Virus record (IMG/VR): IMGVR_UViG_2718217648_000002
Location: 62,001 to 125,351 of that record
Length of the DNA stretch: 63,351 nt
Reading direction: 5' to 3' (one strand)
Origin: an uncultured virus (IMG/VR IMGVR_UViG_2718217648_000002)
Taxonomy: Duplodnaviria > Heunggongvirae > Uroviricota > Caudoviricetes
The notes beneath the pieces were generated by a model. That model saw nothing but the letters and a program-made list of their open reading frames with translations, ran no database searches and was not told the origin of the DNA. Made by a program: the position numbers and the translations under genes. How positions within the stretch are numbered: the first letter of the stretch is position 1; each line of letters opens with the position of its first letter. Positions 1,495 to 62,663 of this stretch are shown in pieces.

Positions 1495-2643
1495 ATGAAT
1501 CTTAAGCAGATGATTAAGAATGAATGTGAAAAAGACAACCAGCTCGCAGCGAAACTCTCAAAAATAGCAGGGTACAAAAAGGTTAATGGTTTTTACAAAT
1601 TCATCAACACCCCAGAGAAAGAAATGGACAACTTAGGCGGTTTAATTAATATTGTTAAAAGCTTGTTTCCTGATAATGAGGAGCAGCTTCTAAGTGATTA
1701 CTTCTTATCACTGGATCCCAACAAAAAATGTGCCAGACAATCTGTTGAATACTCAGATATTAATCAATGGGATACGTTAACAGACAAGATAGTGTCGAGG
1801 CTATCTAGCTCAAAAAACCTAGCAAGTCAAGAATGGGGCAATATATACAGTATACATAGAAGATTGAGCGAAAGTAAGATAAGTTTAACTGATGCAATAA
1901 GAGCAACCGGAAAGTGCAAAACAGATGAAATGTTATTTTTCTCAAATGCTATGCTGATGTATGAGTATTTGAAGGTAGGCGAATTTGGATTGATGAAAAG
2001 CACATTATCACTTCTCAATTTCAACGACTTACCCGAAGGCTTTGTGAAAGATTGCTATATGAATAGAATTTCATTATTAAATGCAAATATTTATTTAAAT
2101 GATAATGAAATTGAAAAATCTAGGTATTATTCAGAACAAGTTATTCAAAATTCAAATATAAATCGACTAAAAGTATTTGGGCATCTAACATATGGGAACA
2201 CATTAATTTTTGAAAGCTACTCTAAAGCCAAAGAGCAGTATCTTAAAGGATTGGAATTTGCTCGTGATAATGAACATCATAAATATAAGCTGCGATTAGC
2301 TCTTTGCTTTTTAAGCAACCTATGGAATAAGGATAATAAATGGCTTGACTTCGACACTGATAATATCCCTGATAAGATTGAGGTAGCATATTACTATACT
2401 AATAATAAGGAATTTAATAAAGCAGAGAAAGTAATAAATGAGCTTGAGAATATGGAATTGTACGAATATGATTCTGGGATTCTAGATTACATTAAGGGGA
2501 TTCTATACCAAAATAAGAATTATTTTTATGAAAGCACTGCAAAGTTGAAAAAATCTGGTGATAAATTATTTATCAATCTTCCATTAGCGGAGCTAAGGAA
2601 AATGGGCTGTGACGAAAAACTACTTGAATTAATCATGGTCTAA
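1495..2643 (+). CDS. aimR: Arbitrium receptor AimR (RRNPP, HTH + TPR)
   Basis: 382 aa, N-terminus NLKQMIKNECEKDNQLAAKLSKIAGY and CARQSVEY typical of AimR; immediately upstream of aimP. Confidence 0.95.
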   Translation: MNLKQMIKNECEKDNQLAAKLSKIAGYKKVNGFYKFINTPEKEMDNLGGLINIVKSLFPDNEEQLLSDYFLSLDPNKKCARQSVEYSDINQWDTLTDKIVSRLSSSKNLASQEWGNIYSIHRRLSESKISLTDAIRATGKCKTDEMLFFSNAMLMYEYLKVGEFGLMKSTLSLLNFNDLPEGFVKDCYMNRISLLNANIYLNDNEIEKSRYYSEQVIQNSNINRLKVFGHLTYGNTLIFESYSKAKEQYLKGLEFARDNEHHKYKLRLALCFLSNLWNKDNKWLDFDTDNIPDKIEVAYYYTNNKEFNKAEKVINELENMELYEYDSGILDYIKGILYQNKNYFYESTAKLKKSGDKLFINLPLAELRKMGCDEKLLELIMV

Positions 2644-2664: not shown

Positions 2665-2805
2665 ATGAAAAATATTATTCTTGGAATAGTAATCTTGTTA
2701 GCAATGGCTGTTGGATTTGTTGCCGGACAGCAATCAATTGAGACAGCATCGGTAGACCATGTAGACCAGCCTGTAAAAGTTGCATCACCAAGCCGCGGGG
2801 CTTAA
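2665..2805 (+). CDS. aimP: Arbitrium pre-pro-peptide AimP, mature peptide SPSRGA
   Basis: Translated by hand: MKNIILGIVILLAMAVGFVAGQQSIETASVDHVDQPVKVASPSRGA; signal peptide and C-terminal xxxRGA; RBS GGGGGTG. Confidence 0.95.
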   Translation: MKNIILGIVILLAMAVGFVAGQQSIETASVDHVDQPVKVASPSRGA

Positions 2806-26019: not shown

Positions 26020-26040
26020 TTATTCAAACTCCTTTGTAAA

Positions 26041-26049
26041 TGGTATAAT
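26041..26049 (+). promoter_or_regulatory. Extended -10 sigmaA promoter for micro-ORF pair
   Basis: TG-G-TATAAT 26041-26049; weak -35 TATTCA at 26021. Confidence 0.65.
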
Positions 26050-26072
26050 TGAATTAATAAAGGAGTGGTATT

Positions 26073-26099
26073 ATGTCCATCAATTCTATTGGAGGCTGA
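26073..26099 (+). CDS. Micro-ORF MSINSIGG (candidate RRNPP-ligand mimic)
   Basis: RBS AAGGAG 26060-26065, ATG..TGA, after own promoter. Confidence 0.5.
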   Translation: MSINSIGG

Positions 26100-26102
26100 G
26101 TC

Positions 26103-26126
26103 ATGGGAGTTAGAGTGGGAGGCTAA
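26103..26126 (+). CDS. Micro-ORF MGVRVGG (candidate RRNPP-ligand mimic)
   Basis: GGAGG RBS formed by the Gly-Gly codons of the previous micro-ORF, 7 nt before ATG. Confidence 0.5.
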   Translation: MGVRVGG

Positions 26127-26141
26127 TAAGATAAACATTTT

Positions 26142-26169
26142 GAGTTGCTATTTAAGCGGCTCTTCTTTT
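26142..26169 (+). terminator. Terminator closing micro-ORF transcript
   Basis: GAGTTGCT-attta-AGCGGCTC-TTCTTTT. Confidence 0.7.
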
Positions 26170-26210
26170 ATGAGGTATTCTAAAAAATATCGTCGATAAA
26201 GGAGAAACTG

Positions 26211-55604: not shown

Positions 55605-56135
55605 TTAGTAATTATAATCCCAATAAACATCAACATTAACTTTTACTTGAGCTACACTGTCATTGTTATGTGCTCGGACATACAATTGTTTTCCTGAAAT
55701 AAGTGATGTGTTTACGCTAAATACTTTGTAAAATTGTTCACTAATATAATTTCCGCCACTCGGTGTAACAGAAGCCAGCACAGTGCCATCTGACTTCATT
55801 AATTCATAAGTCACATTTGCACTTCTACTTCCTGTCCCTGTTGACCATTGTTTCCCCATGATGGAAATCTTGGTTACGTTGTTTGGTGTAAAGCTAGTGA
55901 CTACTGTTGCGTAAGATGCAGGGCCTGAAGTAGATCTACCTATGTTGACTTCACCAACACCATTTTTAACGTGAGTATCAGTCCCAAGAGCATGAAAACT
56001 ACCGGTGTTTGTTAAGACCTCAAGATTATTTTGAGGGGCGGCAACCGGCTCACTTTTAGCAGTAGCATTCGCTGACGCAGCTACACCAGTAAGACCAATA
56101 GTTGAAACTAATAAAGCAATTGCTGTTTTCTTCAT
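55605..56135 (-). CDS. Secreted beta-rich protein (moron)
   Basis: Sec signal MKKTAIALL...ANA; own -10 TATAAT; hairpin about 55582-55598. Confidence 0.75.
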   Translation of the reverse strand: MKKTAIALLVSTIGLTGVAASANATAKSEPVAAPQNNLEVLTNTGSFHALGTDTHVKNGVGEVNIGRSTSGPASYATVVTSFTPNNVTKISIMGKQWSTGTGSRSANVTYELMKSDGTVLASVTPSGGNYISEQFYKVFSVNTSLISGKQLYVRAHNNDSVAQVKVNVDVYWDYNY

Positions 56136-56281
56136 TAAAAGCATCTCCCTTGGTTTAGGTATGTAATACAACTATATTATAACAATTAATTTTGAAATAA
56201 ATGGAGAATGTTGTGAATATATGGTGAATTTTCTGAATGGAGTGTGAATTTCTTCGGTGAGAACTTTAAGGAGGTGATATA

Positions 56282-56602
56282 TTGCAACAAAAAGAGCAAG
56301 AATTGCTGTCAAAGAAAGAACAGCTTGAAATTGATGTTTTAGAAAAGGAAGCAGCTTTACTCCGGCTAGAAGTGGAACAAGAAGATTCCAATCTCCACAA
56401 AATTGGGGAGATCGGTGTACTTAAAGAATTTCTTTTATACATAAAGAAATACAGATCAATGTTTACTGTGCAGCAAGCAGAAGAATTTAGAAATATGGAT
56501 GACCGAATGAAAGAAATCATCAAAGTCCAGGTTGGACAAGTAATGGTTGATGAAGAAGCTTTAGAGGGATTTATTGAGGAAATTGAGAATCAAATTAATT
56601 GA
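56282..56602 (+). CDS. Hypothetical phage protein
   Basis: GGAGGTG RBS. Confidence 0.7.
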   Translation: MQQKEQELLSKKEQLEIDVLEKEAALLRLEVEQEDSNLHKIGEIGVLKEFLLYIKKYRSMFTVQQAEEFRNMDDRMKEIIKVQVGQVMVDEEALEGFIEEIENQIN

Positions 56603-56618
56603 AAGTGGGAGATGAGGA

Positions 56619-56954
56619 ATGAATGAAAAATTAACGAAAGATCAACTCGAAGAAATCCGTCAACGTATGGAAGCGACAACCAAAGGATTTTGGCATGCAA
56701 ACATTCACCATGAATGGCCAGGGAACGAAAATCTTCGTTATTGGATAGTTACTCTTGAGGATGGTTTAGCAGCTGCAGTAACTAAAGAAGACGCGGACTT
56801 CATCGCAAACGCTCGGCAAGACATTCCTAGGCTTCTCGATTATATAACTGAGCTTGAAAGGAAACTTCAGAAAAAAGAATATGAACTTACAGAGTGTAAT
56901 CGTGTCTATTTAGAGCTGTTGAGTAAACAAGAGTTCAAAACAACTGAAATCTAA
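56619..56954 (+). CDS. Hypothetical phage protein
   Basis: AT.G.W ... DADFIANARQDIPRLL motif common in phages. Confidence 0.75.
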   Translation: MNEKLTKDQLEEIRQRMEATTKGFWHANIHHEWPGNENLRYWIVTLEDGLAAAVTKEDADFIANARQDIPRLLDYITELERKLQKKEYELTECNRVYLELLSKQEFKTTEI

Positions 56955-57093
56955 GTAAAATCTGTATTTTAAAGAGAAGGTGATGCAGTGAAAGAGTCGT
57001 TGAAGAATGATTTTCAAGAGTTTATGAGTATTGCAAAAAGCTTTCTTGCTGTTTCTGGAGCAGTCTTTTGGTTATTGATAATTTCACTCGTTT

Positions 57094-57300
57094 TTGCTGG
57101 GGGCTATTAAAATGAATCAATCATATAAAGTTAGTCTAGAAAAATTACCAATTGAAAGCTTAGAGAGACTGAAAACAGACATACAAAATAGAATTAATGA
57201 TGGATTGCGTACCGATAACAATGCATACATAAAAGACCAAAGAAGAAAACTTCAAATCGTTTTAAACGAGCTGGTTAGACGAAGTACATTTGTTCACTAA
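57094..57300 (+). CDS. Hypothetical phage protein (start probably ATG 57112)
   Basis: ORF in operon. Confidence 0.6.
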   Translation: MLGAIKMNQSYKVSLEKLPIESLERLKTDIQNRINDGLRTDNNAYIKDQRRKLQIVLNELVRRSTFVH

Positions 57301-57314
57301 AGGAGGTGAATACA

Positions 57315-57353
57315 ATGCCAGTAGTACTTTATGGATTTGGAAGAGGAGCATAA
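57315..57353 (+). CDS. Micro-ORF MPVVLYGFGRGA ending in arbitrium-type hexapeptide GFGRGA
   Basis: Perfect RBS AAGGAGGTG 57300-57308; ATG..GGA TTT GGA AGA GGA GCA TAA. Confidence 0.7.
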   Translation: MPVVLYGFGRGA

Positions 57354-57376
57354 AAAGAGAGGGGAGTAATCCCCTC
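57352..57376. terminator. Hairpin between micro-ORF and sspC
   Basis: AAAAA...GAGGGGA-gtaa-TCCCCTC. Confidence 0.7.
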
Positions 57377-57381
57377 ATACA

Positions 57382-57594
57382 TTAATGAAATTGGCCATTC
57401 ATGCTTTGTTGGGCTAGGCGAACTAAACGTTTTGTGATTTCTCCACCTACTGAACCGTTTGCTCGGCTAGTTGTCTCAGGCCCTAAGTTCACACCGAACT
57501 CAGAAGCAATTTCATACTTCATTTGTTCAAGGGCACCAGCAGCTTGAGGCACAAGTAATTCATTGCTGTTGTTTGATCTGTTTTGTTGAGCCAT
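57382..57594 (-). CDS. sspC: Alpha/beta-type small acid-soluble spore protein
   Basis: [30 protein letters not shown]. Confidence 0.93.
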
Positions 57595-57638
57595 ATGATC
57601 ATCTCCTAAAGTTGTATGTAAACAAGCTTGTTCAATTG

Positions 57639-57667
57639 TATTGTGTGGAGATGTTTTGTAAATATAC
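57639..57667 (-). promoter_or_regulatory. sigmaG-type promoter of sspC
   Basis: Minus strand GTATA-17-CACAATA. Confidence 0.7.
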
Positions 57668-57694
57668 ACATTAATTTAAAGTGAGGGGATTTAA

Positions 57695-57718
57695 ATGTCA
57701 ATTGGTCATGGAGCATGA
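57695..57718 (+). CDS. Micro-ORF MSIGHGA (arbitrium-type hexapeptide SIGHGA after Met removal)
   Basis: RBS GAGGGG 57683-57688; ATG TCA ATT GGT CAT GGA GCA TGA. Confidence 0.65.
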   Translation: MSIGHGA

Positions 57719-57752
57719 ATTAACACGTACTTAAACAAAGAAGGGGGATAAA

Positions 57753-58583
57753 ATGAAAATCGATTATGTTTCAGATCTGCATATTAATCACTGGATACCT
57801 TGGGACAATGACCAAATTAAATGGGAAAGGCGAACAAGGGAGATTATTAGAAGGCTGATATCGAATGGAAATGGAGAGGTATTAATCATTGCCGGTGATT
57901 TTACTGAGTGGAATCAACAGACACTGTGGGTACTTGATGAAGTAGCAAAGCAGTATGAAAAGGTTTACTTCACATATGGTAATCATGATCTTTATTTACT
58001 CAGTAAAAATCAGCAACGAAAATATTCCGATTCATTGGGAAGGGTGAATGATTTAATTCAGAAGGCTACAGACATCAATAATGTCACTCCATTAATAAAG
58101 TCTACGGATACATACAAAGGGAAAGTCTTTGCAGGAGATGTTATGTGGTATCTTCCAAAAGGAAATGAAGGATGGGATTTCTTCAAAGGTGTCTCTAATG
58201 ATTCAAACTATATCAGCCTTAATGGATACAGCAAAGAAGATGGGGTACGAGCAATGTGGAAAGAATCAATGGGCTGGTATGACACTCTTGAAAACTCTCA
58301 CATTGATGTATTTGTCTCACATGTTCCACCTGTTCACAATCCTTATTCTCCGTTTGAGCCTAACAGCTGCTATATGGTTGATGTCCCGTTCATTAACGCA
58401 AAACATTGGGTTTGTGGTCATGATCATTTACAAGCTGAGTTTGACAATGATGGAACGAGCTTTCACATGAACTGCATTGGATATCCATATGACTATGATA
58501 TGTATCCTAGAGTAAATGAGATACCAGGTAAGCAAGTTGATACGTATAAAACGTTTGAGCTGAAGACATTTGAAATCAAATGA
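57753..58583 (+). CDS. yotB: Calcineurin-like metallophosphoesterase
   Basis: SDLH, AGD, GNHD, SH.PP, GHDH. Confidence 0.85.
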
Positions 58584-58616
58584 AATTCTAATTTTATACA
58601 GAAGGGAGAAAGTAAA

Positions 58617-58829
58617 ATGTCTAATGTGAAAATTAAATATGTTACAGACTGTCATGACAAAGAGTTTACATTAAATAAAAAATATGATTTTCGTATAACC
58701 GATGATGGTATTGAAATCATTGATGATTTAGGTGAAGAACATATCATTGCAACTAAAGACAATGAATATGGGGCTTATGAACACGATGAATTTTTCAGAT
58801 CAAGATTTGAATTTGTTGATACTGAATAA
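58617..58829 (+). CDS. Hypothetical phage protein
   Basis: ORF between two junction motifs. Confidence 0.7.
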   Translation: MSNVKIKYVTDCHDKEFTLNKKYDFRITDDGIEIIDDLGEEHIIATKDNEYGAYEHDEFFRSRFEFVDTE

Positions 58830-58861
58830 AATGTTGATTTCATTTAGAAGGGATAAGTTCA

Positions 58862-59017
58862 ATGAAAGAGATTGAATTTGATGAAGTTAAGAAATTTGTT
58901 GAAGTAATGTCTAGAGAATTTAGATCAACAAAGATGATGAAAATTAAAATTAGCTATGCTGAATGGTTAGTTGATGAAGTTGAACGATTAAGGGGGTTAG
59001 TCAAAAGTGAGCAATAG
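58862..59017 (+). CDS. 51-aa hypothetical protein
   Basis: MKEIEFDEV...WLVDEVERL. Confidence 0.55.
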   Translation: MKEIEFDEVKKFVEVMSREFRSTKMMKIKISYAEWLVDEVERLRGLVKSEQ

Positions 59018-59552
59018 TTTAGAGAGAAAGATTAATATTCATTTCAGTAATGGCTCACATATCGAGTCTAAACAACTTTCTAATAAACTAAGGGGGTACA
59101 ATAGCAATTTCTTATGGGAGCAAATGCAAGAGAGTATCACAAAGGAACTTAAATGGTGGGGAGTCACTCTAACTGGAAATCAGAAAACTGTAAAAGCTTT
59201 AAGTGAGCTAATGACCATTAACAAAACATTGTTTGAGAACCTTTATAAGGTGCAATCAGACACCATAGAAGAGCTTGCAAACAAATTATATGAACAGGTT
59301 CCTGAGTATGAGAAGAAGTTTTTGAAGTTTGTCAATGAACAGATACCTAATCTGAGGATGTGCCTACAGTTCGAGCTACCTTATAATCCTCAACTAATAT
59401 CCAGCATAGAATATGAAATTTACATATCCGGTGCCGAAATTGATTGCGAATACCCACATGATGCTAGGGATTGCATTATTACTTTCTTTCAACGGATACC
59501 AGAAATAATCGGTTCATACAAGGAGGAATTAGATGAAGAATACAGAGTTTAA
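59007..59552 (+). CDS. Hypothetical phage protein
   Basis: ORF in operon. Confidence 0.7.
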   Translation: MSNSLERKINIHFSNGSHIESKQLSNKLRGYNSNFLWEQMQESITKELKWWGVTLTGNQKTVKALSELMTINKTLFENLYKVQSDTIEELANKLYEQVPEYEKKFLKFVNEQIPNLRMCLQFELPYNPQLISSIEYEIYISGAEIDCEYPHDARDCIITFFQRIPEIIGSYKEELDEEYRV

Positions 59553-61752: not shown

Positions 61753-62663
61753 TTATCGGGATGACCTTAATGCCGGTCGCGATGAATCATATTGCCGGCG
61801 GGGAAGGCAGCAAGGATTTCGGTGATCCGGCTAACCTTGCCCTCGGATTTACGGTGCTTGTCATCATCGTGCTGCTTTATCGGTTTACAAAAGGATTTTT
61901 GAAATCCATTTCAATTTTAATCGGCATTGTCATCGGGACGGCCATCGCATATTTTATGGGAAAAGTGCAATTTGACAATGTGGCGAATGCTGACGCCATT
62001 CAAATGATTAAACCGTTTTATTTCGGGACGCCGACATTTCATGCGGCACCGATTATTACGATGTCAATCGTTGCCATTGTCAGCCTTGTTGAATCAACCG
62101 GCGTCTATTTCGCTCTCGGTGACCTGACAAACAGGCGCCTGTCTGAACGTGATTTAGCAAAAGGCTACCGCGCGGAAGGTCTGGCGGTGTTCATCAGCGG
62201 CATTTTCAATGCTTTTCCGTATACGGCCTATTCCCAAAACGTCGGCCTCGTGCAGCTGACGGGGATTAAGAAAAACGCGGTCATCGGTGTCACGGGCGCA
62301 CTTTTAATGCTATTCGGCCTTTTTCCGAAAATCGCAGCCTTCACGACCATCATCCCGTCTTCAGTACTGGGAGGCGCGATGGTGGCCATGTTCGGCATGG
62401 TCATTTCCTACGGCATTAAAATGCTCAGTCAAATTGACTTTAAAAAGCAGGAAAATCTTCTGATCGTCGCGTGTTCGGTCGGATTGGGACTCGGTGTAAC
62501 TGTCGTTCCCGATATGTTTAAGCACCTGCCGTCTTACTTAAATCTGCTGACCACAAACGGAATCGTCGCCGGAAGCTTTACCGCCGTCCTTTTGAATATT
62601 GTTTATAATATGATTCCTAAAACGAAAAAAACCCTTGATGTGACAAGGGTTCAAGAGGGTTAG
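61746..62663 (+). pseudogene. pbuX: 3' part of xanthine permease interrupted by prophage
   Basis: NAT/NCS2 signature (YSQNVGLVQLTG), ESTG; begins mid-protein at VTIIG with no RBS. Confidence 0.9.

Follow-up and report, generated by a model that had tools for sequence, protein, structure and literature searches.

Leaderless minigenes beside sspC of an SPbeta-like provirus end in known non-self arbitrium signals: candidates for forged rival signals

Arbitrium is the model for communication between viruses, and work from 2025-2026 has shown accidental arbitrium cross-talk that lets one phage manipulate another. Here, we describe two micro open reading frames (micro-ORFs) that flank sspC in an SPbeta-like Bacillus provirus of 125,351 bp (IMG/VR record IMGVR_UViG_2718217648_000002). 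The stretch analysed, hereafter the window, covers the right-hand half of this provirus (63,351 nucleotides (nt); positions 62,001 to 125,351 of the record). The closest described relative is the canonical clade-2 signal AimP of SPbeta and phi3T, with which these minigenes share the C-terminal hexapeptide and the immediate stop codon. In contrast to canonical AimP, which is about 40-50 amino acids (aa) long, the minigenes encode 7 or 12 aa and have neither a signal peptide nor a [VM]-A pro-site; they also lie far from aimR, use other codons and are non-cognate to the only AimR of the phage.

Streptococcal SHP and ComS/XIP likewise derive from very short precursors that lack a Sec signal and whose C-terminal part is the active ligand of a cytoplasmic TPR receptor; ComS has been reported to act inside the cell. 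Their genes lie next to that of the receptor, Rgg or ComR, and serve self-signalling, whereas the phage carries no receptor dedicated to the minigene peptides. The Phr peptides of Rap-Phr cassettes, some of which are phage-borne, are also small Bacillus signalling peptides acting on the same receptor superfamily, but they are pentapeptides cut from signal-peptide precursors encoded beside rap, and the minigenes have neither a signal peptide nor an adjacent rap gene. Secreted non-cognate AimP cross-talk (PMC13220667; bioRxiv 10.1101/2025.10.13.681967) resembles what we propose here in that the peptide of one phage alters the lysis-lysogeny decision of another and the emitter gains; there, however, the effect is a by-product of the resemblance of the emitter's own signal, whereas here a separate leaderless gene holds the exact signal of a rival. 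A full-text and keyword search found no published description of leaderless rival-signal minigenes, and the supplements of other papers could hold one. The string SIGHGA appeared in no main text found by full-text search, and the searched parts of PMC13220667, of a 2026 review, of a 2025 preprint and of bioRxiv 10.1101/2025.10.13.681967 do not mention such genes.

The arbitrium genes of the phage and the two micro-ORFs with their ribosome-binding sites are as follows:

1495..2643, plus strand: aimR, the sole AimR homologue in the provirus (Pfam AimR, E 8e-83)
2665..2805, plus strand: aimP, a 46-aa pre-pro-peptide with a signal sequence and the C-terminal cognate hexapeptide SPSRGA
57299..57308, plus strand: Shine-Dalgarno (SD) site AAAGGAGGTG of micro-ORF1, overlapping the stop codon of a 62-aa ORF
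57315..57353, plus strand: micro-ORF1, MPVVLYGFGRGA and stop, i.e., a six-residue leader followed by GFGRGA
57683..57688, plus strand: SD-like GAGGGG of micro-ORF2 (GAGGTGAT in several relatives)
57695..57718, plus strand: micro-ORF2, MSIGHGA and stop, i.e., Met followed by SIGHGA

An earlier note, made from the letters of the window, had pointed out two tiny ORFs with ribosome-binding sites, each stopping right after a hexapeptide of the [G/S]xx[R/H]GA type. Both ORFs were confirmed at these positions, each with an SD site, and the endings were borne out by reading the codons: ATG CCA GTA GTA CTT TAT GGA TTT GGA AGA GGA GCA TAA in micro-ORF1 and ATG TCA ATT GGT CAT GGA GCA TGA in micro-ORF2. 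The GGAGG core within the SD site of micro-ORF1 ends 8 nt 5' of its ATG, and GAGGGG ends 6 nt 5' of the ATG of micro-ORF2. The heptamer AAGGAGG occurs at 29 sites in the provirus, that of micro-ORF1 among them, and 18 of the 29 precede ORFs of at least 40 aa. At total lengths of 12 and 7 aa, neither micro-ORF has a signal peptide, and neither hexapeptide is the phage's own signal, as the AimP of the window ends in SPSRGA; on both points the earlier note was right. The arbitrium module of the phage spans 1495-3082 of the window, while the micro-ORFs lie at 57.3-57.7 kb, approximately 55 kb from aimR and with no aimR-aimP-aimX neighbourhood. Genuine AimP precursors (Table S1, in its available part, and the loci fetched here) are 38-47 aa long with a hydrophobic N-region. 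Both micro-ORFs have the known mature hexapeptide and the immediate stop codon of a published AimP, and both lack a Sec signal peptide or pro-region, adjacency to aimR and a cognate AimR.

The published clade-2 AimP signals comprise 26 mature peptides among 281 systems (Cell 2026, PMC13220667, Table S2). GFGRGA is the commonest of these (56 of 281 systems), and SASRGA (42), NPGRGA (13), SIGHGA (9), SPSRGA (8) and TIGRGG (5) are also listed. Minigene endings were matched to the 26 peptides by eye. All five hexapeptides found at the ends of minigenes in SPbeta-like phages are exact entries of this list: GFGRGA, SASRGA and NPGRGA come as 12-mers, and SIGHGA and TIGRGG as Met plus six residues. 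The earlier note had given GFGRGA as an AimP signal, correctly according to the list; that SIGHGA is a listed signal as well was not known to it. With both GFGRGA and SIGHGA on the list, the match goes far beyond chance: the endings of the two micro-ORFs are exact, known, non-self signals.

To cover the relatives, 71 IMG/VR loci around SspC relatives were fetched, of which 40 were SPbeta-like (L004-L037 and L069-L074); among phage records, 24 had a match and 11 of these were inspected. At least one intact micro-ORF was present in 22 of the 40 SPbeta-like loci, with 28 intact copies in total. The GFGRGA 12-mer was intact in 11 of the 40 loci, with the leader MPVVLY, MPVVFY or MPEVLY, and the SASRGA 12-mer (MVQTLH or MVQTLY) was found in three, approximately 50 nt 5' of the GFGRGA site; one locus carried an NPGRGA 12-mer with the leader MGQVLH. 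MSIGHGA was likewise intact in 11 of the loci, and its site was occupied by MTIGRGG in two. Intact copies also occurred in five of the 11 phage records: the SASRGA 12-mer in SPBc2/SPbeta, SASRGA plus GFGRGA (as MPLVLY...) in SPbetaL1, SASRGA plus MSIGHGA in Goe11, GFGRGA in Goe14 and MSIGHGA in BUCT082. The micro-ORFs are left unannotated in all 11 GenBank phage records inspected. Thus, the recurrence in related phages predicted by the earlier note was observed, in 22 of 40 loci and 5 of 11 records and with codon-like variation; no copy has a signal peptide.

Background scans showed how specific such endings are to this site. The whole provirus contains 15,768 six-frame stops, only eight of which are preceded by [RHVN]G[AG], and three of these eight are its own AimP and the two micro-ORFs. 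Among its 216 SD-preceded ORFs of 6-15 aa, five end in G[AG]. Four more whole proviruses (122-173 kb) were scanned for SD-preceded short ORFs with such ends, and in the five proviruses together these comprised only the cognate AimP, the sspC-flanking minigenes, a single Phr-like ORF and a GTG-started micro-ORF ending in YGG, present in two of them. Across IMG/VR, GFG[RS]GA followed by TAA was found in 55 stretches: 12 were full-length aimP genes on contigs of 28-95 kb, none of them sspC-bearing, 14 were sspC-adjacent (11 intact, two frameshifted and one with ATC) and 29 were unrelated. As background only, Y-GFGRGA-TAA gave 17 matches in 596 Gb of species-representative genomes, none of them in Bacillus. 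Genuine SIGHGA aimP genes in IMG/VR gave no match with a TCN serine and two with an AGY serine.

The minigenes and genuine aimP genes spell the same hexapeptides differently. GFGRGA is encoded by GGT TTT GGA CGT GGT GCG in genuine aimP and by GGA TTT GGA AGA GGA GCA in the minigene, SASRGA by TCA GCT AGC AGA GGA GCA and AGT GCA AGT CGA GGA GCT, and SIGHGA by AGC ATT GGA CAC GGT GCG and TCA ATT GGT CAT GGA GCA, respectively. Because the codons differ, the identity of the peptides does not come from inherited DNA, and captured aimP fragments were rejected as the origin of the minigenes on the same ground.

Among the copies of the relatives, all eight variable sites in the hexapeptide codons were synonymous within each peptide class (neutral expectation 0.30, P = 7e-5), a count that is partly circular, and so speaks less strongly for the peptide, because the copies were grouped by peptide; the leaders showed five synonymous and four non-synonymous changes within the classes. 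Three features are independent of this grouping: the stop codon alternates between TGA and TAA among copies, the two MSIGHGA haplogroups are 88% identical in the ORF and 57-75% identical in the flanks, and copies without the ATG have decayed, as in SPBc2, where the start is ATA and the sequence continues to ...YGFREDLKK. Where the encoded hexapeptide does change, it changes from one listed signal to another, both from SIGHGA to TIGRGG at the 7-mer site (S/T, H/R, A/G) and from SASRGA to NPGRGA (three residues). In addition, micro-ORF2 precedes three different downstream genes across the relatives. The earlier note had proposed conservation at the peptide level as a check, and comparison of the relatives' copies gave this result, with peptides kept and codons varying; the pattern indicates that selection acts on the minigene peptide.

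The earlier note had also expected that the micro-peptide would never equal the cognate AimP. Among the 34 intact copies in 26 phages for which the cognate was found, none equals the cognate AimP (SAIRGA, SASRGA, SIIRGA, SPSRGA, GMPRGA, GFTVGA, GIVRGA or GVVRGA), an outcome of little statistical weight, and the same GFGRGA minigene is carried by phages with six different cognates. An AimR protein search together with Pfam PF22871 found no second AimR in the provirus, the sole match being aimR. The genuine GFGRGA and SIGHGA systems that were found lie on contigs of 26-95 kb, not on sspC-bearing ones. In six of 14 cases, a genuine GFGRGA or SIGHGA locus shares its source-genome or sample prefix with an SPbeta-like provirus, and two of these proviruses have an intact GFGRGA minigene alongside a genuine GFGRGA element. 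Therefore, with minigene and genuine element side by side, the opportunity for interference exists.

The immediate neighbours of the micro-ORFs are the following:

57112..57300, plus strand: 62-aa ORF, a homologue of phi3T_186, immediately 5' of micro-ORF1
57359..57376, minus strand: intrinsic terminator hairpin of sspC, with a minus-strand T-run at 57358-57349
57382..57594, minus strand: sspC, a 70-aa alpha/beta-type small acid-soluble spore protein (Pfam SASP, E 1.5e-21)
57753..58583, plus strand: yotB-like metallophosphoesterase, the next gene 3' (Pfam Metallophos, E 1.3e-17; yotB in SPBc2)

The annotation of relatives gives the same name, sspC, to the spore-protein gene. The T-run of its terminator overlaps the stop codon of micro-ORF1, which lies 5 nt before the hairpin. 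Since there is no T-run on the plus side after the hairpin (57359-57376) and no plus-strand promoter was predicted between 56961 and 58654, the micro-ORFs probably belong to a plus-strand transcript that comes from the operon of small genes 5' of them, probably including the 62-aa ORF, and reads through into yotB. Rfam gave no family at E up to 1 within 56800-58000. Identity of 98.6% to phi3T ends exactly at the start codon of micro-ORF2 (window position ~57697; L001 2196); micro-ORF2 remains on the sspC side, before different downstream genes, and thus lies at a mosaic junction.

Assemblies from RNA libraries were considered as evidence of expression. In runs X1 and X2, which belong to one study, single contigs of more than 10 kb cover 55800-59200 without differences and without strand information, and run X5 contigs cover only parts of this interval. 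As carry-over of DNA is possible and the strand is absent, these contigs were rejected as expression evidence; they are ambiguous, and count against rather than for the translation proposed below.

Methionine aminopeptidase removes Met before Ser or Thr. For its part, AimR holds both ends of the hexapeptide, contacting the free N-terminal amine through Q299 and E300 and the C-terminal carboxylate through R228 (PMC6458997). On this basis, the minigenes would be translated without a secretion leader inside the infected or lysogenic cell, and the stop directly after the hexapeptide would supply the free carboxylate for AimR. MSIGHGA and MTIGRGG would lose Met through methionine aminopeptidase, leaving exact SIGHGA and TIGRGG in the cytoplasm, while the 12-mer would be a short pro-form cut by a protease after its conserved [LF][YH] pair. 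The targets of the peptides would then be AimR proteins of matching specificity in rivals that infect, or reside in, the same cell, and the rivals in these hosts would mostly be elements of 26-95 kb that are not SPbeta-like. Once bound, the rival AimR would leave aimX off, so that the rival is held in, or pushed into, lysogeny, and the phage's own SPSRGA-type AimR would be unaffected.

We thus propose that the minigenes are forged rival signals that act in the same cell, send the rival to lysogeny and spare self, a reading to which we give an even chance; that the minigenes are translated and their products processed, bind AimR and influence rivals is inferred. In a broader form, which we hold to be nearly but not quite as probable, a fast-turning arsenal of forged-signal minigenes beside sspC, each the exact mature peptide of a rival family, would lock the rival AimR off in the same cell without export or Opp import. 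The forger might thereby replicate while its competitor is kept dormant, or a lysogen might be spared because the invading phage lysogenises instead of killing it, and the switches from SIGHGA to TIGRGG and from SASRGA to NPGRGA might track the local repertoire of rivals.

Published work bears on this in two ways. Cross-talking peptides drive the receiver phage to early lysogeny and raise the fitness of the emitter, and the reported benefit includes a prophage facing a superinfecting phage (bioRxiv 10.1101/2025.10.13.681967). In addition, SPbeta, phi3T and Goe11 could still be induced after SASRGA or GFGRGA had been added (PMC13220667), an indirect sign that self is spared. Forgery in the same cell is favoured because cross-talk benefits emitters and because added SASRGA and GFGRGA spare these three phages. 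The interpretation offered by the earlier note is therefore partly supported: its predictions at the level of sequence held, and its mechanism stands as a proposal.

Several observations weigh against this proposal. Many relatives have no intact copy, and copies have been lost or have decayed in many lineages: phi3T and two IMG/VR proviruses are frameshifted by a 1-nt deletion, the phi3T-type deletion at 57328 is also present in an RNA contig of another study, SPR has no copy, and SPbetaL4, L6 and L8 have none or a degenerate one. The same 35-nt segment gives the unlisted ends YGFRKGA and MTGFRRGA in other phages, and SPbetaL5 (L175) has MTIGRG at the 7-mer site, ending one residue short of MTIGRGG. 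In L009, L010, L014 and L015, the segment reads MIWVFG[FL]GKGV and stop, thus ending in GFGKGV or GLGKGV, and closes a longer ORF that begins 5' of it (...KIYKWLREE...). The micro-ORF1 segment may have descended from this form, or the form may be an alternative to it. Moreover, the carriers are closely related, so the copies are not independent. The non-self pattern is not significant because SASRGA is the only peptide found in both roles, cognate and minigene; chance predicts about one self match (p ~0.3 by our own estimate). Co-residence shows no allele-specific link in the few cases available, with the intact GFGRGA minigene in two of the four genomes that have a genuine GFGRGA element. We know of no protease for a cut of the 12-mers after [LF][YH]. 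Uncut 12-mers cannot fit AimR as such, and the putative cut site is unlike the [VM]-A site of real pro-AimPs.

Further observations concern the same relatives. The hexapeptide ATIGRG is also on the published AimP list. AimR is split by stop codons in SPbetaL5 and in the provirus that holds L010. In L013, L017 and L069, a stop follows directly after MI in the segment homologous to micro-ORF1.

The forged signals might instead act extracellularly, being freed by lysis or by an exporter, with the 12-mers trimmed by subtilisin-type proteases and imported by Opp into neighbouring cells, where rivals would lysogenise early. We consider this unlikely, if worth serious attention, as several points speak for it: the 12-mers have to be cut behind a Tyr or His, P1 residues of this kind are preferred by subtilisin-type proteases, which also mature Phr peptides, the path would be the same as that of real AimPs, and secreted cross-talking peptides manipulate receivers in other cells to the benefit of the emitter. 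However, the Met-plus-six design yields the exact hexapeptide without any outside step, and the loss of the signal peptide would make little apparent sense if export were intended.

Forgery within the cell is also preferred to a self-directed role, in which the peptides would serve the phage's own AimR as weakly agonistic ligands or as an internal timer instead of acting on rivals. Clade-2 cross-talk gives this idea some footing, since the AimR of phi3T responds to SIIRGA, SASRGA, SPSRGA and GVVRGA in published work; nevertheless, SPbeta and Goe11 carry the SASRGA minigene, and the induction of SPbeta, phi3T and Goe11 was unaffected when SASRGA or GFGRGA was supplied. The minigene ends are, moreover, the exact signals of other systems and not near-cognate variants, and one GFGRGA minigene is found in phages with six different cognates, which together make a self-directed role very improbable.

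Slightly more improbable still is the possibility that the micro-ORFs are cis-acting upstream or leader ORFs, or small regulatory elements, which tune read-through or downstream translation and in which the peptide is irrelevant. The position of the micro-ORF1 stop, 5 nt before the hairpin and within the terminator T-run of sspC, and that of micro-ORF2, directly 5' of yotB at a distance of 35 nt, would suit such a role, but it leaves unexplained the five signal matches, the synonymous-only variation and the stops right after the hexapeptide. Micro-ORF2 is also tied to no single gene, with three unrelated genes 3' of it, and there was no Rfam match. Least probable of all, and scarcely credible, are untranslated relics or chance (an old gene tail, or captured aimP fragments, among close relatives), for although some phages have the homologous segment at the C-terminal end of a longer ORF, many copies are broken and all carriers are closely related, the codons are unlike those of genuine aimP genes, so the minigenes are not captured fragments, the five different ends all fall within the list of 26, strong SD sites are kept at proper spacing, third positions change and TGA and TAA stops are swapped, and copies decay once the ATG is lost.

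If same-cell forgery is true, dedicated counterfeit genes without receptor or leader would turn arbitrium cross-talk into deliberate interference, an arms race waged with counterfeit signals, which would help to explain why few peptide 'dialects' are common to unrelated elements. Genes of 7-12 codons, under every annotation cut-off, can carry specific biology. As standard laboratory phages, SPbeta (B. subtilis 168), Goe11, Goe14, SPbetaL1 and BUCT082, hold intact copies, the idea is directly testable.

Other small signalling-like ORFs were seen in these proviruses. A TPR_12 search of the provirus revealed a classical Rap-Phr cassette at its left end, outside the window (G000:C1:4-1280, minus strand). 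The only Rap-like gene (120-1280) encodes a TPR protein of 387 aa; next to it lies its Phr-like ORF, which has a signal peptide and runs off the contig. In the provirus of L021 (G003), at ~116.8 kb on the plus strand, a 40-aa signal-peptide ORF ends in ...AERPVGG; it resembles the Phr type and is unrelated to the micro-ORFs. The GTG-started, SD-preceded MTLPPIFYGG is kept in two proviruses (G000:C1:2716-2748, minus strand; G001 ~119,568, plus strand).

Finally, the window holds a second pair of micro-ORFs at 26036-26170 on the plus strand, where a promoter-like ttgtaa..tggtataat is followed by the SD-preceded MSINSIGG and stop (26073-26099) and MGVRVGG and stop (26103-26126), and then by a T-run hairpin. 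None of the 24 phage records contains the pair, the clade-2 list has neither of the two ends, and no full-length AimP with such an ending was found. The pair recurs in four SPbeta-like IMG/VR contigs with one synonymous change, and the arrangement suggests that 26036-26170 is possibly a stand-alone mini transcription unit.

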